Shown one piece after another: positions 10,774 to 35,827 of a stretch of 62,723 nucleotides of DNA. Made by a program: the position numbers and the translations under genes. The notes beneath the pieces were generated by a model. The model was not told where the DNA came from. It saw only the letters and a list, made by a program, of their open reading frames with translations, and searched no databases. The stretch comes from a virus. Numbering within the stretch: position 1 is the stretch's first letter; every line of letters begins with the position of its first letter. Location of the stretch: IMG/VR virus record IMGVR_UViG_3300028920_000026, positions 128,001-190,723 of that record; one strand, written 5' to 3'.

Positions 10774-10788
10774 ACTTGCATTGTGTCG

Positions 10789-13921: not shown

Positions 13922-13951
13922 AAAATCAATTGTACGGAACGTACGTACTGT

Positions 13952-14575: not shown

Positions 14576-14588
14576 CCCGTCCTCCCAT

Positions 14589-16513: not shown

Positions 16514-17453
16514 CTACGTATTTGATGTCAACAATAGAACCCATTGCGTATCGTTGCGCGGAATCAAAATCCTTCCAGACGATGTCTTGCTCGACGATAA
16601 TGTCCGGTGGATTATCGTAGTCACGAAGAGTATAGTCATATGCAACTTGTTCCTGTAGCAAAATTCCATTCACTCCTACGAGTTCACGAGTGCCTCCGTC
16701 TGATGTGTGGATAACAGGACATCCACACCCAAGTGATTCAACGACTGTATTCGGTGAATGATCCAACCACGCAAGATGAATCATATAGTCTGCCTGTGAA
16801 TAGACCTGTAGGCATGCCTCGTGAGAGATGCTGCCGGCGTAGAAGATCGATGGTTTGATGTATCTATCGACGGATCTTAACGCCGCAGCGTCAGCGTTGT
16901 TTCCCAGGATCAGCAACCCGGCGTTTGGAAATTTCGTACGCTTCAGGTGTTGAAAAAATTCAACGTTTGCCTTGAGGCGCTTCTGAGGGTGCCAGTTCGA
17001 TGAACAGACAAAAAGCTTATCAAAATCATTGCGTAGGTTCTGAAGTGATACCTGTTGTTGCTGTGTGAGGGCTGTTCTGATCTCGAGCGGATCGATCCCG
17101 TTGTGAATCACTGCGTCGTATTTGTGCTCGCCCCACCAACCTGTGACCTGCTTCCTGTTGAACTCCGACTGAAACACGACCGCCGTTGCAGCATCATAGG
17201 TCCTCTTGATGCCCACGTTCTTCACAGAAAACTCGTCTGGTTTGAACCAGATACCATCAAGACGTTGCACGAATGGTTTGCTCGTGTCCAACCGTGGGCT
17301 CTGTTCGATGAACACGATTGCAACATCGTAGTCATCTGGATCTGCGAGAATGTGTCCACGGTTTGCAAGCGCCTTAGCGAGGCGCTTTGCGAACGAGTTT
17401 GGTCCCGATCGCGATGACATGTCTACGTTGTCAAAGTAGATTTTCAATTCCAT
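16467..17453 (-). CDS. Glycosyltransferase (GT-B fold, GT1/GT4-like)
   Basis: 328-aa ORF. GCGCPVIHTSDGGTRELV resembles the C-terminal donor-binding region of GT-B enzymes. Confidence 0.45.
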   Translation of the reverse strand: MELKIYFDNVDMSSRSGPNSFAKRLAKALANRGHILADPDDYDVAIVFIEQSPRLDTSKPFVQRLDGIWFKPDEFSVKNVGIKRTYDAATAVVFQSEFNRKQVTGWWGEHKYDAVIHNGIDPLEIRTALTQQQQVSLQNLRNDFDKLFVCSSNWHPQKRLKANVEFFQHLKRTKFPNAGLLILGNNADAAALRSVDRYIKPSIFYAGSISHEACLQVYSQADYMIHLAWLDHSPNTVVESLGCGCPVIHTSDGGTRELVGVNGILLQEQVAYDYTLRDYDNPPDIIVEQDIVWKDFDSAQRYAMGSIVDIKYVVEAYEDILSYALKNR

Positions 17454-17828
17454 GATCCTGACGTTAGTTGTTGTAATTCATCATTTACGTAGACCTACAT
17501 ACGTCCACTATCAATCTCTTGACGACCGTAAGTGTTTCGTGCTAGTTCCCTCGCTGCATTGCGTTCCTTGATAAAACGAGCGCTAACATACATCAGGCAT
17601 GGAAACCTTGCCTTGTCTATTGATGACGTGTTGCGCATTGTTCTATAACGTTAGCACTAAAATAAGAACATCGATGAATTCCTTGAGAATCATGTTCAAG
17701 CTGTTTCTGGCGGTACCAGTCGGCCTTGTCAAATTTCCCAATGGACCTTAAAAAGAGTTCGTGTTTTTCGAGCACTGAGATTGTTGACATTAAATGATCT
17801 CTTGAGCGTTCAAATGGGTAGAGATTCC

Positions 17829-18215
17829 TTATGAACGTTTCTTGATTACTGCAACAATTTCCGCGAGTACTGGCGTTCCATGCAGGAGGACACCACACAG
17901 GGCGAGCTCTGACGTGGGCATGTCATCATGTTTCACACGTTCAGTAAAGATGTTCGGATTGAGCTCATCTCTTCCATTGATGGAAACCATATCATAGTAT
18001 GCCTGCGCGACAAAGTTGATGCCCTTGTCTGTGATGCCGTTCTTCAGTGTTGGAATCATCAGGACTATCTCTTGAAGCGCAAGAAAGATGTCCTGATAGA
18101 TCAGTGTACAGCTTTCCTTGTCGGATGGGTCATGACCCCGATGCTTTTGTAACTTTGCCTCAATCGCCCTCTTGACGGCGTCTTCAATCTGCTTATGTGT
18201 GATCTGCGTTCCCAC
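17829..18215 (-). CDS. Hypothetical protein (128 aa)
   Basis: ORF within the glycosyltransferase cluster. Confidence 0.3.
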   Translation of the reverse strand: MGTQITHKQIEDAVKRAIEAKLQKHRGHDPSDKESCTLIYQDIFLALQEIVLMIPTLKNGITDKGINFVAQAYYDMVSINGRDELNPNIFTERVKHDDMPTSELALCGVLLHGTPVLAEIVAVIKKRS

Positions 18216-19203
18216 TTGTCACCGCCTTTATGAATTCACAGTATCGTTCGATGCACGTTTGCCAATCGATGAGCGTGTCCTTGCTTGGAACGGTCCATGA
18301 ACCAGCAGTGAGCTTTTCAACTAGTTCTTCAAACGAATCATACAACAAACACTCATCATTGCCAACAAATTCCGGCCCAGCGCCTCCGTCTCGACGGACG
18401 AATGTAGGCATGTCGCATGCAATCGCCTCTAGAACGTGGTTCGGTCCTGGTTCTGCACGTGACGCAGAGACGTACACATCATACCTACCGAGCTCGTTAC
18501 CAAGGGCTTTTCCATAAAGCGGCTTGATGACCTTTGTATTCTTGAACGTACCTCGATCTCGTCCGATGTAGGTGAATGTGAAGCCTGGATTCTGTCCGAT
18601 CCACTCATCAAGTTGATTGTAGATGTCAAAACCCTTCAATTCATGGTTCGACCAATGATGGGTTACGATGTTGTTTTTATCATTGTCGATCGCGTCTTGG
18701 CATCGAAAGACATCGCGGTCCACGCCATTCCTGACGACGGTCGTTTGCTTGCACGCCCACCCGTCGTTCCTTGTGAAGTAGTCTTTGATGTACTCGCTTA
18801 CAAAGATCGTTCCGTCGATGTACCTGCTTGCAGTACGCCAGTTTGCATCAACGTGGTTTGTTCCCTTTCTTGCATCGTTCTCGTTGACACGAAGAAACAG
18901 CGGAACATTGATTCCGAACTGTGACTGGAACATCTTGTACTGCACGAGCTGCTGCAGCCCAGCACCAAGCGTCTGCTGATCAGTCTCCAGCCCGATCAAG
19001 AGCGCGGCGTCAGGTGCAGTGTTGTGATCCTGTGGACTGATGATCTCAACGTCAAACTTTTCGGCGTATTTGAAAAGGGCCTTGACAAACATGTTTCCGC
19101 CGCCCCACGGCCCTCGAACAGGCGCTCTATTCACGTAGAGTTTCATTGTCATGCGTCTTTGTTGTCCATTGATGTCACAAGCTTGGTGTAATATTCCTGC
19201 CAC
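18193..19203 (-). CDS. Glycosyltransferase (GT4-like)
   Basis: EPGPNHVLEAIACDMPTFVRRDGGAGPEFVG is an E-x7-E-like donor-binding motif. Confidence 0.5.
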   Translation of the reverse strand: MAGILHQACDINGQQRRMTMKLYVNRAPVRGPWGGGNMFVKALFKYAEKFDVEIISPQDHNTAPDAALLIGLETDQQTLGAGLQQLVQYKMFQSQFGINVPLFLRVNENDARKGTNHVDANWRTASRYIDGTIFVSEYIKDYFTRNDGWACKQTTVVRNGVDRDVFRCQDAIDNDKNNIVTHHWSNHELKGFDIYNQLDEWIGQNPGFTFTYIGRDRGTFKNTKVIKPLYGKALGNELGRYDVYVSASRAEPGPNHVLEAIACDMPTFVRRDGGAGPEFVGNDECLLYDSFEELVEKLTAGSWTVPSKDTLIDWQTCIERYCEFIKAVTSGNADHT

Positions 19204-19206
19204 TTG

Positions 19207-19485
19207 CTAATCGTCGTTCCTTGCCATGTCACGCATCGTGTTTAGAGATTCCTCGCCATCGATCCAGACGAGTGCCTGGACGAATCCTAACCATCTCATT
19301 GCCTTTTCGATGTGATCCTCTGCAACGAATTCAACGATCCTGTCACACATCCACGCCGCATGCGGGTAGACCTCGTCGGGATCTGGATGTCCGACCTCGT
19401 CGTACGATTCAACAGGCATCTGCTGAGGGTTTGGAAGGAGTGTCTTATAGTGAGCAGCTAGCTCGAGAACCTTTTCTTTTGTCAT
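19207..19485 (-). CDS. Hypothetical protein (92 aa)
   Basis: Small ORF coupled between two glycosyltransferase genes. Confidence 0.3.
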   Translation of the reverse strand: MTKEKVLELAAHYKTLLPNPQQMPVESYDEVGHPDPDEVYPHAAWMCDRIVEFVAEDHIEKAMRWLGFVQALVWIDGEESLNTMRDMARNDD

Positions 19486-20243
19486 ATTACGTATCCTCTG
19501 CGACGAAGGAATTGAGCCTCGTCGCGTTGGAACCTTGCATCATCTGTTTGGTACGTTTCCGGTACATCTTCGATGGTATAGTGGTACATCACACGTGGTA
19601 GAAATACGCGCTTGCCGGCATTTCTTAACACTGGCAAGTAGATCGCTTGGTCACCCGCACGCTGAATGTATTCTCCATCCTCACCGCGAAAGTTTTCGTC
19701 ACATACATCGTTGAGCAAACGCTTTTTGAACGTCTTTAGGTGGCTTGTGACCCAAGGATGTACGTATGGATCTGCATCGTCAGGAAGCGGTCCACTGATA
19801 TTCTTGTCACTGTAACCCCACCTGTGTGCTGTCCACAACGCATTGCACTTAGTATCATTGTACGCTTCATTGATGATGTGCAATGCGTCGAGGTCGACCA
19901 ACCAATCGTCTGCGTCGATGCGACAGACGATGTCCTCATCGCAGCACGCTTCGTTTATTCCGTAAATGACATTTGCAACTTCCCACTTCTTTTCGCTGTT
20001 CCACTTCACTTTTAAGTGTCGACAACCTTGATCACGTAGCGATCTGAACCTCGTGATGACTCGAGCCTCCTCCTCGCGTTCGTTAGGACTCGAAAGATCA
20101 TCTATGAGATAGAGCATCCACTTTGAATAAGACTGCCCGTACAGCGAATGTAGTAGCCTAGGAAGCGTCGCACTAGCATTGTACATCGGCGCGATGAAGA
20201 CGAATCTATTCTCACGTCGTGTGATGTCTGTGAAGTTTACCAT
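19482..20243 (-). CDS. Glycosyltransferase family 2 (GT-A fold)
   Basis: FIAPMYNASATLPRLLHSL...LIDDLSSP matches the GT2 N-terminal pattern, and RIDADDW is the DXD motif. ATGA coupling links it to the upstream gene. Confidence 0.6.
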   Translation of the reverse strand: MVNFTDITRRENRFVFIAPMYNASATLPRLLHSLYGQSYSKWMLYLIDDLSSPNEREEEARVITRFRSLRDQGCRHLKVKWNSEKKWEVANVIYGINEACCDEDIVCRIDADDWLVDLDALHIINEAYNDTKCNALWTAHRWGYSDKNISGPLPDDADPYVHPWVTSHLKTFKKRLLNDVCDENFRGEDGEYIQRAGDQAIYLPVLRNAGKRVFLPRVMYHYTIEDVPETYQTDDARFQRDEAQFLRRRGYVI

Positions 20244-20938
20244 GGCATCTCGAGGTCAGATGATTGTACGACGAACTGTCCATAGTTGACTGTCTTATCA
20301 ATCCTGTCGTCAGGATATAGCTGTCTGTCCATGACAACGAGTTCGGCATCGAGTCCGGACTGTGCGACAGCCCTACGAACATCTTCACTGTTGTGATCAT
20401 CGATGATTATGAACTTAGCCCAGCGATTCTTTACAAGTTCAATGTCAGCGCTGATGCCATTGAATGATGAATCTCCATCAACAATCACGATATCAAACTT
20501 TTCAGGTTCCTTGAGTTCATGTGTAAGCACAGCATCGCTGGTACCGCGAAAGAACTTGATGAGCTTGAACCAGTCACCTGGAAACGTTTTCGTCATCATG
20601 TCGCAGTATTCTTTTGTGATCTGTGGATCGATCGTACAGATCGATCCATCGTAACCTGCGTCCGACATTGCTCGAGCTGCGCACAGAGTCGAATATCCAC
20701 GACCGGTTCCGATTTCAAGCACACTCTTGCACTCAAACTGCCTGATCATGTAGTAAAGAAGGATACCGCGCTCGTAGTTTGCGCGAAAGAACGCTCCGCG
20801 GGCTGCGTAGTCTGGATTATCGCGGTCTCGTTGTTGTTTCGCGGTCAGTTCACCGATGAAGTCAAAATCACCGAGGTTTACGCCGGCAAGCGTAACGTCG
20901 AACTCTACTAGCTTATCCTTGATGTTTGTCGTCTTCAT
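20237..20938 (-). CDS. Class I SAM-dependent (sugar O-) methyltransferase-like
   Basis: VLEIGTGRGYSTLCAARAM is motif I and FDIVIVDGDSS is the acidic motif. The start was trimmed to the ATG at 20936-20938, which overlaps the TGA stop of the upstream GT2 gene (ATGA). Confidence 0.55.
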   Translation of the reverse strand: MKTTNIKDKLVEFDVTLAGVNLGDFDFIGELTAKQQRDRDNPDYAARGAFFRANYERGILLYYMIRQFECKSVLEIGTGRGYSTLCAARAMSDAGYDGSICTIDPQITKEYCDMMTKTFPGDWFKLIKFFRGTSDAVLTHELKEPEKFDIVIVDGDSSFNGISADIELVKNRWAKFIIIDDHNSEDVRRAVAQSGLDAELVVMDRQLYPDDRIDKTVNYGQFVVQSSDLEMPW

Positions 20939-21876
20939 TCGTCTATCTCCGAAACAGGTCCCTCGACCATGACCTTGCTCTGTGGGTACTTTAGCGGGTC
21001 TCCAGAACTGTCGAGAGGAAGTTCCCAACCCGCTGGAAACGCGACCATTCCGAACGACACAGGGTGCGAAAGCTGCATCAACAGATCCCATGTGTCGTTT
21101 ACGAGTGGATTGTAAACAAGGCGTTCGCCATTTACAGCACCCTGGTAGTACCCGTAGCGCTTGCCGCCTCTCATGAATGCGTATCCACCTCGAGGATCGT
21201 TCCAGATCGGGAGGAAGATAGGAACATGGTGTGTTGCTGAGATTGGTGTATGTTCGTTGTGATAGTCGATCTGTTTTTTGACAGCCTGGTCGTACCAATC
21301 CTCAGAACGTCCCCAGTACTCCTGCGTCTGGGGCCAGTTTGTCGGGTATGGTCCGAGTTCATCGAACACGTTTGTCTTGAAGAACCCCATCGTGTGGAAG
21401 TGGTCGTCGGTGTACCTCCAGAACCTGTGTCCTGCGAACGATGCTTCGTCCTTGACAACCTTTGATTTGAGCGTTGAACACCTGACTCCGTTCGCAGTCA
21501 AACACATGTATGGGCTCTGTCGGAGCGCCTTGGCATACTGTTCGATCGCACCAGTGGGTCCGATGTACTGTAGGTCGTCCTGCAAGAACAGAATGATGTC
21601 GTGTTTTGCACGTTCGATGATGATGTTCTTTGCGATGTATTCGTCGTTCGTCCAGTTCGATTCACCGTACGCACCGCGAACGATTGCCTCATTAATCCAC
21701 ACACGTTTACATTCATATATGTGTTTGTGTAGGACTTGGTGAACCAGCTGTTCTGTTGAGCAGTTGTCGACGATGACGACCTGATGCATTCCACAAATTA
21801 CTTCGTCGCGAAGCGATTCAAGCAGGACGTCTAAGTACTTGCCCCTGTTGAAGCTCGTGATGCCGATCGTGATCAT
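20935..21876 (-). CDS. Glycosyltransferase family 2-like
   Basis: MITIGITSFNRGKYLDVLLESL is a GT2-type N-terminus, and VDNCS is an acidic motif. The start was trimmed to the ATG at 21874-21876, which overlaps the stop of the upstream GT. Confidence 0.5.
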   Translation of the reverse strand: MITIGITSFNRGKYLDVLLESLRDEVICGMHQVVIVDNCSTEQLVHQVLHKHIYECKRVWINEAIVRGAYGESNWTNDEYIAKNIIIERAKHDIILFLQDDLQYIGPTGAIEQYAKALRQSPYMCLTANGVRCSTLKSKVVKDEASFAGHRFWRYTDDHFHTMGFFKTNVFDELGPYPTNWPQTQEYWGRSEDWYDQAVKKQIDYHNEHTPISATHHVPIFLPIWNDPRGGYAFMRGGKRYGYYQGAVNGERLVYNPLVNDTWDLLMQLSHPVSFGMVAFPAGWELPLDSSGDPLKYPQSKVMVEGPVSEIDE

Positions 21877-23819
21877 CTCATGAGTTCCGGTTGGCTCATC
21901 TCTATCTTGATGTGAGGTAGGCACTGACCTTCCCACTTTCTATGGAAGATCCACCCACCAGTCTCTGTGGCGAGTGCCTTTGCCTTTTTAGCAATCATCT
22001 CGTCAGTCACTTCTGACCACGGAACGTCAAAGAAGTTGTTGTTTTCTGCAGTGTCTTCAACCGATTTGTTGAAAAGCGCGTTCCAGTGGTTCTGCCAATA
22101 GTCACGGTACAGCTTGATCTTGCGTTCGATGTCGTACCAGCTGTAGTGGAACACGCCAGGGAGATCTTGCAGGATCTTGTTTAGAAGGCCTTCGTACTGA
22201 CCTTTTGCGGTTGGATCACTGAAAAGTACAGCTCTTCGCAACTTCTCGAAGTCTTGGGTCCAAAAGTTTAGGTGTGGAATCGGATCGCCTGTTTCTGTAT
22301 GGATCATATCGCATCCGTCGGTTCCTTCAAGGGCATACAACTCGCCGCTATCGTCATACATTCGAAGTTGCTTTGGAATTCCGTGCGTGATGTACGGTTT
22401 GTTTCGTGAAAGGCGCCACTTCCACGGTGTCGCATCAACACGTACCTTGTCAGACCCACCCCAATACTCGACAACAGGTAGACACACGATATCAATGCCC
22501 TTCGTGATCGACCTGCATAGCTCCTTGACCTTCGACGCATGAGATTCGTGTACGACCTCATCGCTGTCCTGCTGCCAACAGAACTCTTGTGTACACATCT
22601 TTCGTGCCTCTGCCTTCTGCACGCCGTCAAAGACCGCGTGGCGAGGATGAGACCAATCACGTTTGATTTGCTTGACATTTACCCTATTGATGATGTTCCC
22701 ATCATTCTGATGAACATGTTCTGCTGCAATGCGCAATAATACTTCCCACGTTCCGTCAGTCGATCCACCGTCAACAACACAGACTTCGTCACAGAACTGA
22801 AGCATTGACCTGATCGATTGCTCGAACGGATATTCTTGGGAAACACAGTTGTATGTTGTCGTGTAACCGGAGATTGTGGGCTCGTACTCGATGAACGCCT
22901 TGATGCAGTTCCAAAACACCCCACGAGCTGCATAGAGGTATTGCTCGATTGACTCAATGTCGTCGGTTGCAAACCATTCTTCGTCCTTGTGTTGAACGTT
23001 TGAATTAAGTTCAAGTTCGCAGCCAAGAAGTTTGGCTTCAATAACCATCCTGGGACACGTGTCGCCTCCTTCAGGGAGGTAGACGAATCCCTTTGCGGTT
23101 GCGAGTTTCTCGAGTACTTCGTTATATGGAACATTCCACAGCTGTTCGTGTTCGTATCCTTTTTTAAGACAGAAATCCCTGGCTGCCTTGGCAGCCTTGA
23201 TCCAACTGGGAGAATTGAGGGTGATCCACTTCTTTCGCTCTTTTCCTGAATGCTTCTCGCGAAGCAGCTTGATGCTCGCGAACGTTGCATCGTCGAAGAC
23301 AGAACTGAGGACTACGTTGTCCTTTTCTTCGAGGAATGGGAAGCGATCGTGATATCGCTTCATCTGGGTTTCAGACATCCAAAAAATTCCCATTGCACCG
23401 TAGTAGAATGCAGATGTCATCTTTCCATGCATCTGGTTTGCGCAGTCGCACGGTACGCCTTCCTGGTGCATATGAAGCTCAGTTGACCTGAACCGACAGA
23501 ACTTGTAGTCGTACTCAAGCACGGCGTACTGCATGTTCCCGACGATGGATGGGATCAACCTGATGTCCATCTGTGTCCAGTTACCGAATATCCAGAACCT
23601 GTCGTGTCCCTTTTGCAGAAGTTCGATCGTGACGTCCTTTGATTTGACTCTAAACACTTTGAACGGGCTGGAGTCTATGAGTGCTTGTGTCGTGAGTTCA
23701 GCTCCACCGACGTATTCATCAACGAACATGTCTGCAACAAAGATGATCTGGACATCGGGTGGGATCTCGTTCTTTGGAGGTTCAGGTACGGCAAATGGGC
23801 TTTCAAATGGTGTGAACAT
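21873..23819 (-). CDS. Large multidomain glycosyltransferase (contains a GT2/GT-A domain)
   Basis: 648 aa. FCDEVCVVDGGSTDGTWEVLLRIAAE is the GT2 (D)DGSTDGT signature. Additional N-terminal domains are uncharacterised. Confidence 0.55.
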   Translation of the reverse strand: MFTPFESPFAVPEPPKNEIPPDVQIIFVADMFVDEYVGGAELTTQALIDSSPFKVFRVKSKDVTIELLQKGHDRFWIFGNWTQMDIRLIPSIVGNMQYAVLEYDYKFCRFRSTELHMHQEGVPCDCANQMHGKMTSAFYYGAMGIFWMSETQMKRYHDRFPFLEEKDNVVLSSVFDDATFASIKLLREKHSGKERKKWITLNSPSWIKAAKAARDFCLKKGYEHEQLWNVPYNEVLEKLATAKGFVYLPEGGDTCPRMVIEAKLLGCELELNSNVQHKDEEWFATDDIESIEQYLYAARGVFWNCIKAFIEYEPTISGYTTTYNCVSQEYPFEQSIRSMLQFCDEVCVVDGGSTDGTWEVLLRIAAEHVHQNDGNIINRVNVKQIKRDWSHPRHAVFDGVQKAEARKMCTQEFCWQQDSDEVVHESHASKVKELCRSITKGIDIVCLPVVEYWGGSDKVRVDATPWKWRLSRNKPYITHGIPKQLRMYDDSGELYALEGTDGCDMIHTETGDPIPHLNFWTQDFEKLRRAVLFSDPTAKGQYEGLLNKILQDLPGVFHYSWYDIERKIKLYRDYWQNHWNALFNKSVEDTAENNNFFDVPWSEVTDEMIAKKAKALATETGGWIFHRKWEGQCLPHIKIEMSQPELMR

Positions 23820-23963
23820 GCTGTCATGATTCTAGCGCATCAATTCTGGATGTTCAAAGAAATTTTGTTTGTCAAAACGCCACGTGCGGTAGTAAGATCT
23901 TCTTTTAGTAGATCAGATCTAGAAATCAAATTTCAGCAGTCAGAAAGAATAGAAAGAACAGAA
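23820..23963. promoter_or_regulatory. AT-rich divergent intergenic control region at the minus/plus strand switch
   Basis: About 145 bp of non-coding DNA sits between the start of the minus-strand GT gene (23819) and the plus-strand chaperonin gene (23964). AT-rich runs are present (aaattttgtttgtcaaaa; agaaagaatagaaagaacagaa). Confidence 0.35.
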
Positions 23964-25178
23964 ATGAGAAATAAAAATGGCGCGACAGCGCGCGTGTGTG
24001 TACATGAAGACCTCGCGGTGCTGAAGAAAAGGGTCACAGCTGACCTCGCCAAGTTCGTACAGTCTGGCCTCGTACTTTCGCTTGGAAGGATAGTCGCGCC
24101 AGAAAGTGCATTGTTGGACTTCAAAAACGTTGATGACTTTGGACGACGTCTTATTGAATTTATCGAAACAGCCGCGGTCGAAGCAGAGCGGTACAGTCCT
24201 GGAGCGTTTGCAAGGGTCATCGCTTCTGTCAACAACAAAGCGAGCGTCGACGAGTGGCAAGCGGCGCTCGACAACGGTGCTGATCGTCCAACAGACAAGG
24301 ACATTGATTGGCTCATTGATGAATTCGGAGAAGGCACACCGAAAGACGCGCTACGTGAGGTCATCGATCTCGTTGGGTTCGGAGGACGCGTCTGCGTAGA
24401 ACAAGCAAACGGTCAGGACGTCATTGTCGAACAAGGTAATGGCTTTACGTTTCCTGTCGGTACGCACGACATATTCGTCGGAAGGTACAGGAACCCGCGA
24501 GTGTTCGTTGTCGACGGGTACATTGAAAGCGTTGCTGAGGTGACAACGTTGCTCGAGCAGTCACACGCATCGAAGGAATATCTCGTTATCTTTCACCGTG
24601 GGATGCACGCCGACGTTACAAACACACTCGCAGTAAATTGGAGGAGAGGTACGCTGCGATGCATCCCAGTTCATGTACCTTTCGACGTAGAAGGGATCAA
24701 CACTCTGAATGATATAGCAGTCGCTTGTGACTCCGATGTTACGTCTTCGAACAAGGGAGAGCTGATCAGTACCGTCGATTATGCGTCGCTTGTTTACGTT
24801 GAAGAGATCATTGCTTGGTCAAACAAGCTTTCAATCATGAACGACTCAAACGTTTCTCGTGTTGCTGCTCATGTGCAAGAGCTCAATCGCAGGCGTTGCG
24901 CCATAAACGAAGACGTCATCAAGGAATTGTACGACAAACGCATACGTTCGTTGTCGTCGAACGTCGTCACGCTAAAGCTACCCGTGTGGTCGGGCTACAG
25001 GTACACGAGGTACAGGGTCGATGAGTTCCTGAGGGCATACAGATGCCTTGTTGATCATGGAACAGTCGTCGTCAACGAGAAGAAGCACCTCGCTACAACT
25101 GCGCTTGCGATGGTACGCTACGTTCCTGTGCTCAAGAGACAGCTTGAAGAACTGGGTGCTATCATTAGCTTATCGTGA
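23964..25178 (+). CDS. GroEL-like chaperonin (divergent, about 405 aa)
   Basis: NTLAVNWRRGTLRCIPVHVPFDVEGINTLNDIAVACDSDVTS aligns with the GroEL apical-domain segment [42 protein letters not shown]. The preceding EYLVIFHRGMHADV matches GroEL PLLIIAEDVEGEAL. The start was set to the ATG at 23964. Confidence 0.45.
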   Translation: MRNKNGATARVCVHEDLAVLKKRVTADLAKFVQSGLVLSLGRIVAPESALLDFKNVDDFGRRLIEFIETAAVEAERYSPGAFARVIASVNNKASVDEWQAALDNGADRPTDKDIDWLIDEFGEGTPKDALREVIDLVGFGGRVCVEQANGQDVIVEQGNGFTFPVGTHDIFVGRYRNPRVFVVDGYIESVAEVTTLLEQSHASKEYLVIFHRGMHADVTNTLAVNWRRGTLRCIPVHVPFDVEGINTLNDIAVACDSDVTSSNKGELISTVDYASLVYVEEIIAWSNKLSIMNDSNVSRVAAHVQELNRRRCAINEDVIKELYDKRIRSLSSNVVTLKLPVWSGYRYTRYRVDEFLRAYRCLVDHGTVVVNEKKHLATTALAMVRYVPVLKRQLEELGAIISLS

Positions 25179-25953
25179 GCTTCTCGAGCTTCGCTGGATC
25201 AAGTCCTGCATCGATGAGGTGCTGAGCAAAGCTCAATTCGTCGCCTTCAGCCTTCCAGAGGAGTGCGACCTTCCTTGCAACACCCTTTAGCGCTTCTTCG
25301 CTCGCTTTACCCTTCTGGGTCTCCGCGCTGCTGTCCTCGGGAGGTTGCTCTTGCTCAAGGCTTTTTGCCACGTTCTCAAAATCAACGCGATCAAGCTCGT
25401 CTGTAATCTCGACGATCCTGTCGAATGATAGTAGTGGAACGTCAAGGACATCTTCAGGAGCGATGTCAATAACGTTTGAAAAACCTTTCATCGCTCCGGC
25501 AATAGCGGAGTAGATGCCTTGGGCGACCTTCATCGCTGCGTCTGTGATCGCCTTGCGTTCGTCGCTCCCCAGTTCTTCTTCGTCACTGCGTCTTGCGTCT
25601 GTGATTGCCGTATAGGCATCGATCAATGTACCGCCAGTGTCCATTGCTGATTTGAATGCCTCTTGGTTTTTTTCTGCGGCGGCTGAAACAGCACCGGCAA
25701 TAGCGTCCATCGCTCCGACGAGGCCACGAGCTGCGTTTAGCGCAGCGGCTACGTTTGTTCCACGTTGGATGTTGCCGACGATCTGTGCTGTGATGTTCGA
25801 TAGCTCCTCGCTGAGCGGGTCCTGAAGTTTGTCGAGTTCCTTGGAGACGGCGCTTAGGGCGGCGTTTACCTGGTTCACGTCTGCCTTCGCTTCGTTGAGC
25901 GTCCGAAGCGCTCGACGTTCAATACGACGGAATTTTAGAGTATGACGTGTCAT
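25165..25953 (-). CDS. Hypothetical coiled-coil protein (262 aa)
   Basis: Ala/Glu-rich predicted coiled coil. It is an opposite-strand gene embedded in the plus-strand block, convergent with the chaperonin gene. Confidence 0.35.
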   Translation of the reverse strand: MTRHTLKFRRIERRALRTLNEAKADVNQVNAALSAVSKELDKLQDPLSEELSNITAQIVGNIQRGTNVAAALNAARGLVGAMDAIAGAVSAAAEKNQEAFKSAMDTGGTLIDAYTAITDARRSDEEELGSDERKAITDAAMKVAQGIYSAIAGAMKGFSNVIDIAPEDVLDVPLLSFDRIVEITDELDRVDFENVAKSLEQEQPPEDSSAETQKGKASEEALKGVARKVALLWKAEGDELSFAQHLIDAGLDPAKLEKLTIS

Positions 25954-26002
25954 GACGTTTACTTACAATATCTAGGAAGTTAAGATTGCTTTCGGAGTTT
26001 CT

Positions 26003-26269
26003 ATGACTAACAATGGCAACGAAATCATCAAGAGGTTTTCTCAGGTCGCCATCACGGTGAAGGATGACACCCAACGGGCGATCGTGAACGCAGTTCGCTC
26101 GAAGAAAATCACCCTCGACGCTAAGTCGCTTCAGTTGGTTCTGCAGGTCATTGACGCAAGCATTACGACAACATGGGGCAATTCGGAACGTATCCTCAAG
26201 AAGACCATTGACGAGCAGCTCGATGTTGTGTTTGGAGATGGCTTCGCCGCAGGATCAAAAAAAAGCTGA
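26003..26269 (+). CDS. Hypothetical protein (88 aa)
   Basis: ORF only. Confidence 0.3.
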   Translation: MTNNGNEIIKRFSQVAITVKDDTQRAIVNAVRSKKITLDAKSLQLVLQVIDASITTTWGNSERILKKTIDEQLDVVFGDGFAAGSKKS

Positions 26270-26323
26270 GCAACGACCCAAAACCGAAATCACAAAAGAA
26301 GAGAAGGCCACGAACGTTCTAGC

Positions 26324-26815
26324 ATGGCTGTTTCGAGCGATCAAGAGTTTTCTATGGCGTCTGGTCACAAGCATTTAGTAAGTTGCAGGTGTTCGTTACC
26401 GCAGTTTAAGAACATGGATGACCCACCGTTTCACAAGTTTATCGTGTTCTCAGTCATAGACGATAACGAAAACATAGCATCTAGTTATGCACAGTGTAAC
26501 AATTGCGGCGTGATCCACAGGATCACAGACATCTGTAGGTCAGAGATCGTCAACAGAGAGGACCTCATGACGCTTCCAAGCATCGATGATGTCAGGCTCG
26601 GGATGAATGATCAGCTCGCGGCAACGCTTGATAGGTACAAGGCTGACCTACCGACGTGGCAGGCGGTACAGTACATTATCGACAACGAACGATGGGGTGA
26701 CTTTGTGACGTTGACGTCCGACGAACTTGAAGGTGAGCGTCAAGTGAAGTATATCCAGATCCTGGGCAGGAACATCTTCAAGATCAAGACACACACCCAA
26801 GGAGCGACAGTATGA
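26324..26815 (+). CDS. Hypothetical Cys-containing protein (163 aa)
   Basis: ORF carrying CRCS...CNNCG. It is coupled to the next ORF by an ATGA overlap. Confidence 0.35.
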   Translation: MAVSSDQEFSMASGHKHLVSCRCSLPQFKNMDDPPFHKFIVFSVIDDNENIASSYAQCNNCGVIHRITDICRSEIVNREDLMTLPSIDDVRLGMNDQLAATLDRYKADLPTWQAVQYIIDNERWGDFVTLTSDELEGERQVKYIQILGRNIFKIKTHTQGATV

Positions 26816-27102
26816 CGATAGACGAAGCAAGGATGGATGAGTTCATGACGGAACGTATGGCGTTCGAGAATACTCGGGCGCGAGGCATCGTCCGAGAGAT
26901 CCTGAACTTTGGCGTAAACGATAGGATGATCTTGATCATCATCTCGTCGCTAGCGGCGAACCTTGAGCGCGTCGAACACATGAAGATGATCACGAAGTGC
27001 GTTCGAGAGTTTGAATCGTCTGAAACATTCCTCCTTGACAAGATTGAAGAGAGCGAAAAGGTTGGTTACGTTTTAGGAGAGGACGACGAAGTTGTGGGGT
27101 AG
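26812..27102 (+). CDS. Hypothetical protein (96 aa)
   Basis: ORF translationally coupled to its neighbours. Confidence 0.3.
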   Translation: MTIDEARMDEFMTERMAFENTRARGIVREILNFGVNDRMILIIISSLAANLERVEHMKMITKCVREFESSETFLLDKIEESEKVGYVLGEDDEVVG

Positions 27103-27340
27103 GGTTCCACATCCTCGTGTGTTTGTCTATCTGAATGGCAACCTGTTGTTCGAGCAGACGAAGGAATGTTCAGGCGACTATACACTCAATTCTGCGGCAG
27201 GTCCAAACATCGTAGATTGTTTGCGATTTCAGTTTCCGTTGAAAAAGACAGACCACATCCAGGTTGTCATGGGGGACATTAGGTTTTGTGCTGAGCTTCC
27301 AAGGAACTTTCAGCCACGCGAAAGGATAGACGATGGGTAG
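27092..27340 (+). CDS. Hypothetical protein (82 aa)
   Basis: ORF overlapping its neighbours by a few nt. Confidence 0.3.
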   Translation: MWGRVPHPRVFVYLNGNLLFEQTKECSGDYTLNSAAGPNIVDCLRFQFPLKKTDHIQVVMGDIRFCAELPRNFQPRERIDDG

Positions 27341-27938
27341 GAAGGCCGTTGGCACCAAGAACAACAAACCGTCAGGTTCTGGGATGAAGCGAGCGATGGC
27401 AGCAGCGTTCAAGATCCCGATGATGAAGAACAACGACTCGCGGTTGGTCTACCTTAGCGGTGACGTCACCGAAGACTCGATCTCTGAGATCCAGGAACAG
27501 CTGCTTGACCTCGCATCCGCCAGCCGTGATCCGATCCATCTAGTTGTGTCGACATACGGTGGCGCTGTACACGAAATGTTCTCGCTGTACGACGTGATGA
27601 AGTTCATCCCGGCACCCGTTTATACGGTCGGCCTCGGCAAAGTCATGTCAGCCGGAAGCCTCATCCTTGCTGCGGGCGAGAAGGGACACAGGATGATCGG
27701 CGCTTCAACGCGTGTCATGATTCACTCGCTGTCTGCTGGTTTCTTTGGGAACCTATTTGAACTGGTGAACGAGATTGATGAAATCAAGCGTCTTCAAGAC
27801 ATGTACGTCTCAAAGATGGTAGCAGAGACGAAGATGTGCAAGAACGACGTAAATGCGATGCTGAAGACGAAAGTCGATTCGGTGTTCTCTGCACAGCAGG
27901 CCGTAGAACTCGGTATCGTTGACAAGATCATTACCTAG
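27333..27938 (+). CDS. ClpP-family serine protease (possible prohead protease)
   Basis: LVVSTYGGAVHEMFSLYDVM and GKVMSAGSLILAAGEKGHRMIGASTRVMIHSL match the ClpP active-site regions around the Ser and His. Confidence 0.65.
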   Translation: MGRKAVGTKNNKPSGSGMKRAMAAAFKIPMMKNNDSRLVYLSGDVTEDSISEIQEQLLDLASASRDPIHLVVSTYGGAVHEMFSLYDVMKFIPAPVYTVGLGKVMSAGSLILAAGEKGHRMIGASTRVMIHSLSAGFFGNLFELVNEIDEIKRLQDMYVSKMVAETKMCKNDVNAMLKTKVDSVFSAQQAVELGIVDKIIT

Positions 27939-29657: not shown

Positions 29658-29753
29658 CGTCTCTGACGTAAGTCCACGCACACCCAGGGCAACAAATATT
29701 TACTGTCGATTTTTGAGACGTATATTTATGCTCGAGTGAAAGGAGGCCATCAC

Positions 29754-29981
29754 ATGGCTGCAGAAACAACCAATCCCGTCATTGCAAAGTGGGACGAGAT
29801 TAAGGTACTCGTTGCCGACCTCGAACTCGATGTTGTCAAGAATGCTCGTGGTACTGCCGCAGCCGGCGTCCGTGCCCGAAGGGGCCTGCGTCAGCTAAAG
29901 GTGAAGGCCACCGAGTTTGTTAAGATGACTGTCGAGCGCGACAAGGCAAAGAAGGCCGACAAACCCGAAAAGTCTGAGTAG
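29754..29981 (+). CDS. Small basic Lys/Ala-rich protein (histone H1-like or other nucleic-acid-binding protein)
   Basis: The ATG at 29754 is preceded by a perfect Shine-Dalgarno, AAGGAGG, with a 7-nt spacer. The product is about 75 aa, with AAAGVRARRGLRQLKVKATEF...KAKKADKPEKSE. A strong terminator follows. Confidence 0.4.
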   Translation: MAAETTNPVIAKWDEIKVLVADLELDVVKNARGTAAAGVRARRGLRQLKVKATEFVKMTVERDKAKKADKPEKSE

Positions 29982-30080: not shown

Positions 30081-30473
30081 ATGCCAGCACCCAGAGCAGT
30101 TCTTGAAGCACTCGAAAAGTTTGGACTTCGTTCCGACAAGGCATATTCACTCGTCCGTTCGGATGGCACGCTTAGGCCAGTAGGATTTAATTCCGAAGAC
30201 ATTCTAATTGTCGCTCCAGATCTAGAGGGTGAACCTGTGAATCCTGAGCCTGTGAAGCCAGCTGTAGTGCAAGAAGAGGCACAGGTTGTTGAGGTTGCAG
30301 AGGAACCTGCTCTTGAACCTGTTGTTGAGGAGCTCGTCGAGAAACCTACGCTCGTCGAGGAGCCGAAGACAGAAGCAACACCTGAACCGGTGAAGCCTGC
30401 GCCTGCTCCTGAAAAGGAAGTGCCGAAGCGAAAGCCGCGTCGCAAGAAGGCTCAGCAGGCGGATGATGCCTGA
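30081..30473 (+). CDS. Hypothetical acidic Pro/Glu/Val-rich protein (130 aa)
   Basis: The N-terminal about 50 aa are structured-looking, followed by a PEP/VKP-repeat low-complexity linker and a basic KRKPRRKK tail. Confidence 0.35.
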   Translation: MPAPRAVLEALEKFGLRSDKAYSLVRSDGTLRPVGFNSEDILIVAPDLEGEPVNPEPVKPAVVQEEAQVVEVAEEPALEPVVEELVEKPTLVEEPKTEATPEPVKPAPAPEKEVPKRKPRRKKAQQADDA

Positions 30474-30733
30474 TCGACCACAGCGTCTCTGAACCTCTGA
30501 ATGATGCTCTTCTCGACCTGACAGATCCTCATCCTAGTCAGGTCGAAGATGTTGCCAACCTTCTCAAGGGTGAGCGGGCCGCTCGCGGCAGCGATGAGAC
30601 AGCAGTTGTGTGACTCCTCGTGTGGAATCCAATCACGACAGCTGCGTCTGTTGCAGTGCACGTTGTGCCTCTTGTGTTCTGCGAAGCACGTTGTATTGAC
30701 TACAGGAAGTTTCCTTTCATTGTGGCCTGACAT
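30452..30733 (-). CDS. Stand-alone sigma-70 region 4 (4.1/4.2 HTH) domain protein with a Cys/His-rich N-terminus
   Basis: LTLEKVGNIFDLTRMRICQVEKSIIQRFRDA aligns almost residue-for-residue with the sigma-70 region 4.2 sequence [29 protein letters not shown]. The N-terminal 45 aa contain C/H residues (CFAEHKRHNVHCNRRSCRDW...HNCC). Confidence 0.45.
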   Translation of the reverse strand: MSGHNERKLPVVNTTCFAEHKRHNVHCNRRSCRDWIPHEESHNCCLIAAASGPLTLEKVGNIFDLTRMRICQVEKSIIQRFRDAVVDQASSAC

Positions 30734-33310: not shown

Positions 33311-35827
33311 GTGTTCTATAGGGCGCCAAGAAGAAGAAACATTATCTCGATTGATGAGGATACGTTTGCCACGCTTGAACACATCTATGAGCAACCGTAC
33401 AACCCGTCGTATCCAGATACGAAGCACAAGTGGTATCGTTTCAAGTTTAGGTACAAGGTACCTGTACGCGATGTGTTCAAACACAACGTCTTTACAGTAA
33501 GGGTACGTGTCCTAACGAGGACCCTTGCGTTCAGGCAGATGGTCGCTCGTACGAGAGGACGCGTCCTAACACGCCAATTGATCAATAGGATTCGTTGGCA
33601 GATGACGTACGCAAAGAACCTACGATCTCAGCAGTCTCAATTTGTTGTAGCAGCGCGAAACAGCGACATAAGCGCACATGTGAACAATGATGCGTTGTCT
33701 GATCTTCGTCGCGGCGCACAACCAGAGGATATCAGGTCATTTCGCAGCAAGAGGCTCATAAATCGTCGTGTATCTGACATCCAAGAACGCGGTGAACGTC
33801 GTCCTGTGCTCGGTGGTTACGCCTGGCAGGACATAAATAACCGCGATCAAGTGACGTCAGATGACTTTACGAGCCAGTTCTTTTCGAAGATGCTCATGTA
33901 CGATATGATCATCAAGCGTGGTCTCGATCCTAGCTACGTTGCAAACATGAGTCACAGGACGATGTCTTCACGGCAGGCTGTTGGTGGCCTAGTAAGAAGG
34001 CAACGTTCTCGCGCGTTGACAACCGATTCTGAATACAACGCTCAGACACGTCTAATGTACGGGTATGTTTTCAACACAGACGATATGACAACTGTACGCC
34101 AGACTGATGAAGTGTCCGAACAAACAATGCAGATTCAGACGTTTGAAACAGACGTACAGACACACTACGAGATTCCAGTAAACATGACGCTGTACAGCGA
34201 AAAGATGAGGATCGGAAACGATGACAATACGACGCTTGTTGTAAAGTTTGACCTCATCAGCAACAGGACCGGCATGATAGTCGATGAACTGATTGCTCCG
34301 CTGGATGTTGAGAAACATGTTGAAAATTACAGAATTCCAAATGAACCGCCCGAGCTGCGTATCGCAAGAGCGGAAGACCTGTCAAAGTTCACACTTGAAA
34401 TAACACAACGTGATCCAAAGGCGACGCGAGTCAGAGTGTTGCAGAAAAAGATTCATAGAAATTCGCCTGTCATCAATGATTACGCAACGATCGGTGACTT
34501 TGAAATAGACAAGCGACTGAAGACAGTCAGGGTTCCTGTCATCACACCTGTAAACGATTACACGATCTACAGGGTTATTTCAATGGGAACAGCGGATCAG
34601 CTTAGCTACGAGTTTACGAACGTCGTGTTAAGACCGTCGAAAGTCTACCCAGTTAAGGCTGTATCACTTGTCACTGCGTTTGCTGAGGCTGGGATTTCGC
34701 TAGAGCTGAGGAATATTCCTACAGATGTTGTTTCGATCCAATTCCTCGTTAAGGACAAGACGATCCATGAGAGGAACTGGAGAAACGTTGGCCCTCCGTT
34801 TGTTGTTGATGATTCAATACGAAACCTTGATTTCATGACGGTGACAGATCCGACCGTGAAACATCAACATGTTTACGAGTATACTGTCAAGATGTTCTAC
34901 CTTGCAGGGTCGACAGAACTTGCGGGACATGCTCTGATCGAATTCGTCAAACCAGAATCAAATGTTGTAACAACTGAGATTTCGAACATTGAGATCGCTC
35001 AGGATGATATACCGAACGTAACGTTCCAAATGACGACAGAACTTCTTGATTCTAATCTTGACATTCTGACAGGTTTGATGAAGCTGCGTGAGATCGAAAA
35101 GTACTTCACTGATTCGATTGCAGACGAACGAGACCTGTTCAAACAGCTCGTTGCTCACAACGTCCAGCGCGTCAATATCACGACGGGTGAACGTGAGGAC
35201 TTTGGCGTGATCTCTGATACAATTTTCAATGATGATAGATCAAGGAGGTCAAACGCAGTCAAACCCTTGGACGTTAGAATGAAATACAGGTACGAGGTTT
35301 ATCCTCTATTGAGGTCGCCTGAATCACTTTTTGAGCGCCTGTCGAAGAACAAGGTTGATGAAGTAACGAAGAAGCCGTACAGGTACAATCCTGCAAAGTT
35401 TCTTCATCCTGTAACATTGAATCGTGGAATGATAGTGACGCCACTTGGCAGGAAGACGCTGTTTGCAAAGCAGGAGATGTCACACGGTATTGTTGGAAAC
35501 GTTGAAACTATTGACGTTGATTTTGAGAGGCCTCCTGCAACGATCAATAACATTGATGCTGGACGTATCGATTATGATACCGTAAGGGTCGATTGGCAGA
35601 TTGACGGTCAAATATCACAGATCGATCACTTCATTGTTATGAAGGAAACGCTTGGATCAAGGACGATTATTGGAAAGGTGCATTCGGAGTTTACGGACAA
35701 CAATGCGTACTTCCTTCACAGGATCACAGGTGATGATTCTGCGCAGTTTAGATACGTCATCGTTCCGGTGTTCAACGACTACACGATCGGCATGAAGCAG
35801 GAAAGTAACTACATCGAGGTACAATGA
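33311..35827 (+). CDS. Giant hypothetical protein 1 of 3 (838 aa), probably beta-rich/FN3-like and possibly a virion component
   Basis: Uninterrupted 2.5-kb ORF. The C-terminal region has Ig/FN3-like patterns (RVDWQIDGQISQIDHFIV...FRYVIVPVFNDYTIG). Its stop overlaps the next start (ATGA). Confidence 0.4.
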   Translation: MFYRAPRRRNIISIDEDTFATLEHIYEQPYNPSYPDTKHKWYRFKFRYKVPVRDVFKHNVFTVRVRVLTRTLAFRQMVARTRGRVLTRQLINRIRWQMTYAKNLRSQQSQFVVAARNSDISAHVNNDALSDLRRGAQPEDIRSFRSKRLINRRVSDIQERGERRPVLGGYAWQDINNRDQVTSDDFTSQFFSKMLMYDMIIKRGLDPSYVANMSHRTMSSRQAVGGLVRRQRSRALTTDSEYNAQTRLMYGYVFNTDDMTTVRQTDEVSEQTMQIQTFETDVQTHYEIPVNMTLYSEKMRIGNDDNTTLVVKFDLISNRTGMIVDELIAPLDVEKHVENYRIPNEPPELRIARAEDLSKFTLEITQRDPKATRVRVLQKKIHRNSPVINDYATIGDFEIDKRLKTVRVPVITPVNDYTIYRVISMGTADQLSYEFTNVVLRPSKVYPVKAVSLVTAFAEAGISLELRNIPTDVVSIQFLVKDKTIHERNWRNVGPPFVVDDSIRNLDFMTVTDPTVKHQHVYEYTVKMFYLAGSTELAGHALIEFVKPESNVVTTEISNIEIAQDDIPNVTFQMTTELLDSNLDILTGLMKLREIEKYFTDSIADERDLFKQLVAHNVQRVNITTGEREDFGVISDTIFNDDRSRRSNAVKPLDVRMKYRYEVYPLLRSPESLFERLSKNKVDEVTKKPYRYNPAKFLHPVTLNRGMIVTPLGRKTLFAKQEMSHGIVGNVETIDVDFERPPATINNIDAGRIDYDTVRVDWQIDGQISQIDHFIVMKETLGSRTIIGKVHSEFTDNNAYFLHRITGDDSAQFRYVIVPVFNDYTIGMKQESNYIEVQ

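Follow-up and report, generated by a model that had tools for sequence, protein, structure and literature searches.

Why would a giant uncultured phage encode a relative of the chaperonin GroEL close to a ClpP protease? Such a pair lies in a 62,723-nucleotide stretch of viral DNA, here called the window. The original prediction read it either as a virus-controlled folding and quality-control module or as a prohead protease with its assembly chaperone.

The locus and its genes

The two genes follow directly after a strand switch (23819/23964), which coincides with the minimum of the cumulative GC skew at about 22-24 kb. The features of the region, in window coordinates, are:

23820..23963, no strand: intergenic space from which the minus-strand glycosyltransferase block and the plus-strand block diverge; probably the module's promoter region
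23964..25178, plus: short GroEL-like protein, 404 aa; group I chaperonin fold, equatorial domain reduced, ATP site missing
25165..25953, minus: X, convergent helical low-complexity protein, 262 aa; poorly conserved, in 28/74 related loci
26003..26269, plus: A, small conserved protein, 88 aa; in 60/74 loci
26354..26815, plus: B, putative zinc-binding protein (KHLxCxC...CNNCGxxH), 153 aa; the ORF opens at 26324 and the conserved start, M11, is at 26354
26812..27102, plus: C, small helical conserved protein, 96 aa; directly upstream of ClpP in relatives
27092..27340, plus: 82-aa ORF, unconserved in relatives; lineage-specific or not a gene
27333..27938, plus: ClpP-family serine protease, 201 aa, Ser106-His131-Asp182; basic variable N-terminal extension without the canonical axial loop
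27957..29657, plus: DinG/XPD-type DNA helicase; conserved downstream neighbour
29736..29981, plus: Hc1 histone-H1-like protein; conserved downstream neighbour
30452..30733, minus: small sigma-70 region-4 protein; linked to ClpP in a sister lineage too

This layout agrees with the predicted position of the pair at the head of the plus-strand block, with its spacing of about 2 kb (2.15 kb as measured) and with the convergent gene in between. The five small genes counted there are in fact four plus-strand ORFs of 88, 153/163, 96 and 82 aa. An upstream ATG at 23850, used in a 442-aa call of the GroEL-like gene (P0291), is unsupported by the family alignment. Sigma-70-like hexamers at 23869-23898 (+) and 23857-23829 (-) are consensus matches only, and the scan for consensus promoters and terminators did not define the operon structure of the module.

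A, B and C match neither Cpn10 nor any other Pfam, NCBIfam or PHROG model. Profiles of A and C find nothing significant in PDB, and B has no recognisable fold. In relatives, a gene of ~191 aa lies directly upstream of the GroEL-like gene; it is missing from the window. This gene was rejected as a co-chaperonin or split equatorial domain because its product is a coiled coil with a C-terminal transmembrane helix and is not GroES-like. An AAA+ unfoldase was likewise rejected as a partner, since an FtsH/CDC48/PAN-like gene lies near the module in a single related locus (L006), barring weak matches in L057 and L060; the L006 gene has no homologue in the window. A defence or anti-defence role was also set aside, as PADLOC yielded only a chance coiled-coil match for X.

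A GroEL relative without an ATP site

A profile of the GroEL-like family matches GroEL at E=2e-24 over residues about 19-424, and the three-domain equatorial-intermediate-apical fold of group I chaperonins is present. The apical and intermediate domains are best kept, which bears out the signature noted for them in the original prediction. With Pfam PF00118 and TIGR02348 as the family references, the protein has no match to Cpn60_TCP1 (PF00118) even at E<=1. The NCBIfam GroEL models give 25-57 bits against cut-offs of 352-1041, and the homology is nonetheless significant. The suspected absence of equatorial elements is real: ~100 aa of the C-terminal segment and ~25 aa of the N-terminal segment are gone, and the family holds no counterpart of GroEL 417-517. 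In GroEL, the remainder of the nucleotide pocket and the contacts between rings lie in the C-terminal equatorial helices.

The nucleotide pocket was judged by the GDGTTT loop (D87, T89-91), D52, the catalytic D398, G415 and N479/A480/D495, and both the GroEL-like protein and its family (170 members) lack it. The window protein has PGAF (residues 79-82) in place of GDGT and E354 at the position of D398. Across the 170 members, the D87 position is G in 134 and D in none, and the T89 position is F in 125; D52 is replaced by T or S, D398 by Y, R, V or L, and the positions of G414-416 vary. With the ATP residues and the C-terminal equatorial helices lost, the GroEL-like protein therefore appears unable to run the ATP cycle of GroEL. 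Strictly, an unconventional mode of nucleotide binding could outlast the loss of the canonical residues. Its sequence points to a group I chaperonin descendant turned pseudo-chaperonin, rather than the working chaperonin first supposed. The original prediction had named two observations that would refute it, a failed Cpn60 HMM search and lost ATP-binding motifs, and both were made.

Phage chaperonins of the EL gp146 type are recognised by a full-length subunit with a conserved nucleotide pocket and by ATPase activity without a co-chaperonin. The suggested comparison with phage EL reveals an opposite trend: EL gp146-type proteins conserve their nucleotide pocket better than any other part (PMC7185714), whereas here it is lost, in a protein of 404 aa against 545-558 aa. 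EL gp146 (PDB 6TMT), OBP gp246 (6HDD) and the chaperonin of Bacillus phage AR9 are ATPases of 511-609 aa, and relative to them the GroEL-like protein is short of ~100 aa of C-terminal equatorial domain.

Elements for ring formation seem to be retained. The predicted strands 9-13, 37-44 and 399-403 correspond to ring elements, suggesting that the ring-knitting N-terminal strand, stem-loop and C-terminal strand are kept; this predicted secondary structure is consistent with an oligomer. The GroEL minichaperone (residues 191-345/376; PDB 1KID, 1JON) is an engineered monomeric apical fragment, whereas the natural GroEL-like protein keeps the intermediate and a reduced equatorial domain, the predicted ring-forming strands and a partly polar groove. 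The CCT-like domain of PIKfyve (PDB 7K2V) is a chaperonin-derived non-ATPase, but it is eukaryotic and group II-derived, belongs to a larger enzyme and is tied to the GroEL-like protein neither by evolution nor by context.

The apical groove of helices H and I, which binds substrates and GroES, was assessed at Y199, Y203, F204, L234, L237, L259, V263 and V264. Of these, L237 and V264 are retained, and 101/170 family members have L or I at L259. In addition, T261 and N265 are invariant and R268 is found in 160/170. Other positions have changed: L234 is H in 112/170, with H/N substitutions noted there, V263 is K or R in 122/170, Y199 has become P and F204 has become S. The window protein itself has T194, T219 and A223 in place of L234, L259 and V263. 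This conserved but altered groove suggests a specialised partner rather than generic hydrophobic binding. Because the groove is more polar than that of GroEL, general holdase activity is uncertain. An apical domain retained without enzymatic activity could also act against the host chaperonin system, as a decoy or an inhibitor that sequesters host GroES or co-assembles with host GroEL. We consider this very improbable, as the changes at L234, V263, Y199 and F204 alter the GroES and substrate contacts and no part is more diverged and truncated than the equatorial domain, which makes the ring contacts.

The GroEL-like family comprises at least 740 clusters at 50% identity, has a median length of 405 aa and comes from metagenomes only. 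No member turned up in cultured phages, in BFVD or in 185,579 representative cellular genomes, and the zero count in the latter led us to reject a cellular or prophage origin. Cultured phages have no DNA similarity to the window. At the protein level, the GroEL-like protein finds among cultured relatives only canonical GroELs of phages or hosts, 20-30% identical, and its BFVD matches are all 511-609 aa or longer. The neighbouring genes of 838 and 1384 aa have no match in cultured phages.

Linkage to an intact ClpP

The gene at 27333 does encode a ClpP-family protease, as predicted. Pfam CLP_protease (PF00574; MEROPS S14) matches it at 2e-36 (125.9 bits, cut-off 20.2), and the triad S106/H131/D182 is intact. 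Within its clade, the triad is kept in 63/63 (Ser), 63/63 (His) and 60/63 (Asp) sequences, and the window ClpP is probably catalytically competent. The N-terminal axial-loop region is absent or variable. The hydrophobic cleft of ClpP is the docking site for ClpX/ClpA; here it is altered in part (Y60H, Y62V, L114G).

The gene order GroEL-like, A, B, C, ClpP recurs among 74 non-redundant viral loci that carry the GroEL-like gene. B is found in 72/74 (97%) and ClpP in 62/74 (84%), making B the most conserved member of the module and the closest partner of the GroEL-like gene. Where present, ClpP is always on the same strand as the GroEL-like gene, 0.8-3.3 kb downstream. In 36 loci without X the median distance is 1.1 kb, and in many of them the gap between the GroEL-like gene and A is only about 10-60 nt. 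The five genes look like an operon. The block has been maintained through an inversion (L007) and through changes of flanking genes (L006, L007). ClpP is missing from 12/74 loci, cleanly so in L024, where its neighbours are retained; the GroEL-like gene persists, with B missing from just two of the 12. ClpP can thus be dispensed with, and the core pair is the GroEL-like gene and B.

A second arrangement exists in the sister lineage, the nearest other ClpP clade, located by searching outward from ClpP. There, a full-length, GDGTTT-positive GroEL, presumably ATP-competent, lies 1.4-2.7 kb downstream of ClpP in 28/28 loci. Between them is a 594-aa gene that matches nothing in PHROG, Pfam or PDB and lacks a homologue in the window. 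The adjacency is absent from the cultured GroEL phages Va1 and immuto, and none of the cultured phage chaperonins examined is linked to ClpP, unlike the gene described here. In Marine et al. 2017, the neighbours given for GroEL are GroES, sHSP and a kinesin-like gene, with Clp unmentioned. The literature searched gave no account of ATPase-dead phage chaperonins or of a phage ClpP-chaperonin linkage.

Synteny in the clade extends well past the module, to the glycosyltransferase block, helicase, Hc1 and PhoH; therefore, the adjacency could partly reflect descent. The two genes might then be unrelated early or middle accessory genes, linked by a shared expression class and inherited synteny, with ClpP acting on host proteins alone or with a host AAA+ partner and the GroEL-like protein working with B only. 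In line with this, jumbo-phage ClpPs are patchy and predicted to act on host proteins (PMC7824862), stand-alone ClpPs without a chaperonin occur in PA5oct, Tsamsa-like and other phages, and loss of ClpP mostly leaves B in place. We nevertheless find this explanation unlikely. The linkage withstands inversion and flank replacement, and it recurs in the sister clade with another gene order and a canonical GroEL. The missing axial loop and the changed ClpX/ClpA cleft residues (Y60H, L114G) also speak against it. The window ClpP resembles the ClpPs of PA5oct, vB_pir03 and Tsamsa-like Bacillus phages in being short, encoded outside the head module and 28-35% identical to them. It differs from these stand-alone proteins in its loop and cleft, and its clade is encoded next to a chaperonin homologue as well as to the conserved small proteins A, B and C.

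The part of the original prediction that made ClpP a prohead protease is contradicted by the phage itself, which encodes a Peptidase_S77 (T4 gp21-type) prohead protease between terminase/portal and the Gp23-type capsid gene; with this separate enzyme in place, ClpP is not the head protease. A head-maturation pair, with X as scaffold and the GroEL-like protein as capsid chaperone, is largely refuted and has very little probability left. The top PHROG matches of ClpP are 'head maturation protease' families, its canonical N-terminal loops are missing, and X is scaffold-like (helical, low-complexity) and in L007 follows ClpP on the same strand. Set against this, NCBIfam gives the protein 120 bits to a cellular ClpP subfamily, below the equivalog/subfamily cut-offs (120 vs 228), compared with 61 bits to Clp_rel_HeadMat (NF045542; cut-off 120). 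In addition, ClpP is dispensable in some relatives and X is missing from 46/74 loci.

A possible client-binding ring beside ClpP

The GroEL-like protein could still assist virion assembly independently of ClpP. An ATP-independent ring would hold or template some large structural protein, such as the major capsid protein of gp23 type, replacing or assisting host GroEL as T4 gp31 does, and its adjacency to ClpP would be incidental. The phage does encode a Gp23-family capsid protein, and the dependence of T4 gp23 on GroEL/gp31 is established (cited in PMC5649160). Furthermore, canonical GroEL lies within the structural block of the cultured Vibrio phage Va1, and the GroEL-like gene remains where ClpP is lost. 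However, the gene is ~35 kb from the head module, amid replication and transcription genes, and in 74 loci no structural gene is linked to it as B and ClpP are. A folding client would also have no release mechanism without ATP or a lid. We therefore judge this role improbable.

Since the ATP site is lost and the cluster with an intact ClpP is conserved, the GroEL-like protein probably forms a ring that binds proteins passively and works together with the protease. Our tentative reading, held with a little less than even confidence, is an ATP-independent client-binding ring that cooperates with the phage ClpP and is not a folding machine. Of the predicted folding and quality-control module, the linkage stands, with 62/74 loci and a second arrangement in the sister lineage, whereas the working chaperonin does not. 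The GroEL-like protein would be a client-binding platform, holdase or adaptor, probably a single ring. Its clients may be a delimited set of proteins, either non-native or specific ones, of host or phage, which it captures and hands to ClpP; alternatively, it may regulate ClpP. The module would act early or mid infection and serve phage proteostasis or host takeover, not head maturation.

Organelles offer an analogy. The chloroplast co-chaperonin Cpn11/20/23 of Chlamydomonas caps ClpP (10.1101/2021.07.26.453741), and the apicoplast CPN60 of Plasmodium binds the Clp complex (PMC12282863). In both, seven-fold chaperonin-system rings bind and modulate the ClpP barrel, and the cooperation proposed here would be of the same kind. 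Those systems are canonical, ATP-competent and encoded by unlinked genes, whereas here an apparently ATPase-dead GroEL derivative shares one cluster with ClpP and the interaction is putative. A bolder version, which we consider quite unlikely, has the GroEL-like protein forming a single seven-fold ring that docks, along a common axis, on the equally seven-fold barrel of ClpP; A, B or C might serve there as adaptors or regulators. In such a symmetry-matched, ATP-independent, chaperonin-capped protease, the cap that selects substrates would be the degenerate chaperonin instead of the hexameric AAA+ unfoldase, and the sister lineage, with ClpP and canonical GroEL, would represent the ATP-driven ancestral form. 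If true, self-compartmentalising proteases would gain a new class.

To our knowledge, all characterised chaperonins, phage ones included, are ATPases. A large family in nature that has retained the half of GroEL which binds clients but dropped its motor would add a new functional class to a much-studied fold, and would reveal what a chaperonin ring does without ATP. The cluster also houses an abundant putative zinc protein, B. The consistent encoding of the GroEL-like gene beside ClpP, together with the pairing of ClpP and canonical GroEL in the sister lineage, suggests that large phages partner a chaperonin with a protease, an arrangement undescribed in the literature searched. This partnership would provide a testable handle on the means by which giant phages remodel the proteostasis of host or virus and on whether seven-fold chaperonin rings can gate the seven-fold ClpP barrel.

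Remnant of a chaperonin and its family

The genes discussed here lie at the head of a plus-strand block, as originally predicted, just past the strand switch from a minus-strand block that ends at 23819:

23964-25178 (+): GroEL-like ORF, 404 aa
25165-25953 (-): convergent gene X, 262 aa
26354-26815 (+): gene B, 153-aa protein with Cys/His motifs
27333-27938 (+): ClpP ORF, 201 aa

The 404-aa protein is a GroEL homologue, but a distant and reduced one. The Cpn60_TCP1 search proposed with the original prediction came back empty in Pfam, even at E≤1, and NCBIfam GroEL models, with cut-offs of at least 352 bits, score the protein at just 25-57 bits. PHROG 5725 'chaperonin groEL' aligns to residues 171-339 (8e-16), and in the PDB, phmmer picks up Cpn60/GroEL (8e-14 to 1e-6), residues 126-369 corresponding to GroEL 157-412. 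A family profile built from 28 members matches GroEL at 2e-24, from residue ~19 to ~424, and AF2 models the protein with confidence (pLDDT 87.7). The label 'phage chaperonin' therefore holds for descent and for a fold in the GroEL superfamily, but not for the ATP pocket, the full equatorial domain or the curated thresholds.

E. coli GroEL was placed into the family alignment and 170 family representatives were scored. To judge from the aligned residues, the nucleotide site is gone, from the window protein and from the family alike, contrary to what a GroEL-type chaperonin would require.

GroEL nucleotide-site residues and their counterparts (GroEL; window protein; 170 representatives)
G86-D87-G88-T89; P79-G80-A81-F82; 134 have G at position 87 and none has D, 125 have F in place of T89
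D52; A45; T or S
Catalytic D398; E354; Y, R, V or L
G414-G416; V370-N371-E372; variable

The suspicion that equatorial elements may be missing proved correct. About 25 residues are absent from the N-terminal equatorial part, and beyond GroEL residue ~416 only ~32 profile positions are left against ~130 residues in GroEL, which removes the inter-ring contacts as well as the helices on which N479, A480 and D495 sit. The apical groove is kept yet changed. T261 and N265 are invariant, R268 is present in 160 of the 170 representatives, and L237 and V264 are retained; L234 has become His in 112 and V263 Lys or Arg in 122. Thus, the client-binding half of the chaperonin fold is preserved, while the ATP motor and the inter-ring surface have been removed.

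In GroEL, the inter-subunit sheet of the ring is built from three elements that the AF2 model retains: the N-terminal strand (9-13 in the window protein), the stem-loop hairpin (37-44) and the strand at the C-terminus (399-403). This makes it plausible that the protein forms a single ring. An apical domain kept without the motor might also be read as a decoy of the host chaperonin, a reading we consider very improbable indeed.

At E≤1e-30, an exhaustive profile search returned at least 740 representatives of clusters at 50% identity. The best 150 of these 740 are ~280-460 aa long, and the median is 405 aa among the 170 analysed members. Precomputed tables assign them no Pfam domains, and the few members named in their sources are called 'hypothetical protein' and, once, 'chaperonin GroEL'. 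No encoder was found among cultured phages, nor among 185,579 cellular genomes scanned; BFVD holds no short members, its phage GroELs all being full-length at 511-609 aa. Some distant members reach 450-510 aa with a longer equatorial domain, yet are still motif-less; one of them (L043) reads 'AGADPASTALL' where GroEL has 'AGDGTTTATVL'. These longer forms suggest that the family may have arisen by stepwise decay of a full-length chaperonin.

Conserved linkage to B and ClpP

Between the GroEL-like gene and ClpP, ORF calling gives X and four small plus-strand ORFs (88, 153/163, 96 and 82 aa) rather than the five small genes first counted. Six independent metagenomic loci share the order GroEL-like, X (minus strand), A (88 aa), B, C (96 aa), ClpP, although their GroEL-like proteins are just 24-51% identical; the contigs of two of them measure 301 and 314 kb. 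At one related locus (L007), A-B-C-ClpP is inverted as one block, and different genes flank the module at L006 and L007. A scan of IMG/VR contributed 80 more loci. For linkage counts, all ORFs were scored with module profiles at 74 non-redundant loci having at least 4 kb downstream.

Module genes present at the 74 loci
B: 72
ClpP: 62
A: 60
X: 28

ClpP is invariably on the same strand as the GroEL-like gene, 0.8-3.3 kb downstream. Where X is missing the distance is ~1.1 kb, and the gap to A is in many cases just ~10-60 nt. The small helical protein C occurs at nearly all loci having both B and ClpP. Hence the proposed pairing stands as part of a tightly conserved five-gene cluster of GroEL-like, A, B, C and ClpP. 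That GroEL-like and ClpP are two unrelated accessory genes draws on the loci where ClpP is lacking, but appears unlikely, given that the linkage survives the inversion and the changed flanks and recurs in another gene order in a sister lineage. ClpP is nevertheless dispensable in some lineages: at L024 it is cleanly absent with B, C and a helicase kept, and the most distant family members retain B only. The chief reservation about a partnership with ClpP is that ClpP is missing in 16% of loci while B is almost always there, which makes B the obligate partner of the GroEL-like protein. Highly conserved, with at least 179 homologues, B has a confident AF2 model with no structural or sequence match in PDB, Pfam, PHROGs or NCBIfam, and may have a new fold.

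In relatives, the GroEL-like gene has a directly adjacent upstream neighbour of 178-196 aa (L002 9403-9993, L003 9424-9999, L005 7438-7974), in L002 and L003 a coiled-coil protein with a C-terminal transmembrane helix; this gene is absent from the window.

The ClpP protease and the surrounding phage genome

The ClpP-family protease predicted at 27333 is confirmed by the Pfam CLP_protease match (2e-36). Its triad is Ser106, His131 and Asp182; all 63 non-redundant members of the clade have Ser and His, and 60 have Asp, so that the enzyme is predicted to be active. The canonical N-terminal axial loop is absent or swapped for a variable basic extension. The ClpX/ClpA docking cleft is partly altered in the clade (Y60H, Y62V, L114G), and positions F82, I90, M92 and F112 remain hydrophobic.

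A T4-type large terminase marks the source of the window as a tailed phage. The same phage is present as a 331,213-bp contig (L170, ENA ERZ27252253 k141_1101516), which makes it a jumbo phage. No DNA similarity to cultured phages was found. Its other features include:

4752-23819 (-): ~19 kb with at least nine glycosyltransferase/methyltransferase genes and DUF7487
8184-8259 (-): the single tRNA called by ARAGORN, anticodon TTA ('tRNA-Stop', would read UAA), overlapping the ends of two ORFs
29736-29981 (+): Hc1 histone-H1-like protein
30452-30733 (-): small sigma-70 region-4 protein, 24.8 bits in Pfam, just over the cut-off, overlooked when genes were called on the contig
33311-41924 (+): three consecutive large ORFs of 838, 1384 and 649 aa, with no match in Pfam, PHROGs or NCBIfam
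42593-43297 (+): homing-endonuclease-like gene, GIY-YIG and NUMOD3
45507-46478 (+): homing-endonuclease-like gene, TnsA-like/HNH
46497-49034: 845-aa gene flanked by two of these three homing-endonuclease-like genes
49048-50055 (+): homing-endonuclease-like gene, TnsA-like and NUMOD3
55285-58455 (+): 1056-aa ORF, SbcD-like nuclease (Metallophos, N-terminal) fused to SbcC-like ATPase
59163-60797: T4-type large terminase
~61261 onward: T4-like head module (L170 12099-21635), mostly past the window end

The glycosyltransferase block, which points to an elaborate glycan-modification capacity, also precedes the module in ~300 kb relatives, there with sugar epimerase/dehydratase genes as well. It stops at 23819, where cumulative GC skew turns; the skew minimum (22000-24000) coincides with the divergent switch 23819/23964 and could mark a replication origin, a terminus or mere transcription-associated skew. 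The tRNA could hint at stop-codon recoding or be a false positive. The 838-aa and 1384-aa ORFs have no tblastn match in 50,697 cultured-phage records.

On the 331-kb contig, the genes after the terminase are, in order, a probable portal of 675 aa, a Peptidase_S77 prohead protease, several small genes, one of them for a peptide deformylase, and a Gp23-family major capsid gene. The separate Peptidase_S77, of the T4 gp21 type, and the capsid gene rule out ClpP as the prohead protease that had been suggested alongside an assembly chaperone. NCBIfam likewise gives ClpP 120 bits to cellular ClpP subfamilies versus 61 bits to the ClpP-related head-maturation model (cut-off 120), below both cut-offs. 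A head-maturation pair of GroEL-like and ClpP is thus largely refuted. The GroEL-like protein could still serve assembly without ATP, as a chaperone of the gp23-type capsid or of some other virion protein. We consider this doubtful, because the module lies ~35 kb upstream of the head genes among a helicase, Hc1, the sigma-r4 protein, PIN-PhoH, nucleases and SbcCD, surroundings that would suit a non-structural role early or midway in infection.

A sister lineage and a possible mechanism

As a reciprocal test, we searched IMG/VR outward from the window ClpP. The 26 closest ClpPs all lie inside the same module. The next clade, 38-48% identical to the window ClpP, comprises 49 non-redundant loci, some on contigs of 115-205 kb. 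Its GroEL is full-length (~525 aa) with the GDGTTT loop intact; in L129, the example inspected over its whole length, LGPRGRN, IEDAL and VAGGG are present too. At all 28 loci with enough sequence, this GroEL follows ClpP at a distance of 1.4-2.7 kb downstream, with a 594-aa unannotated gene in between. The order, e.g. at L129 3373-8954, is sigma70-r4, an acidic 224-aa protein, a 129-aa protein, ClpP, the 594-aa protein, GroEL; at this locus ClpP occupies 4857-5528 and GroEL 7377-8954. The small sigma-70 region-4 protein near ClpP is common to both lineages and, with Hc1, is a conserved module neighbour. ClpP is therefore paired with a chaperonin in two arrangements, which differ in gene order and in the genes lying between; by their motifs, one of the paired chaperonins would be working and the other degenerate. 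Marine et al., who surveyed the neighbours of viral chaperonin genes, make no mention of Clp, and the pairing is absent from the cultured GroEL phages Va1 and immuto.

We suggest that a single ring of the GroEL-like protein would capture specific or non-native proteins without ATP and work with ClpP, and B, to degrade, process or regulate its targets. An isolated GroEL apical domain is well known to work as a chaperone without ATP. There is precedent for chaperonin-system rings on ClpP: a chloroplast co-chaperonin caps and inhibits ClpP (10.1101/2021.07.26.453741), and Plasmodium CPN60 binds the Clp complex (PMC12282863).

The GroEL-like proteins are best seen as a new and widespread family of pseudo-chaperonins, specific to phages and encoded with ClpP. 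We know of no earlier description of an ATPase-dead chaperonin family; its interest lies in this apparent novelty and in a link to ClpP that is directly testable.
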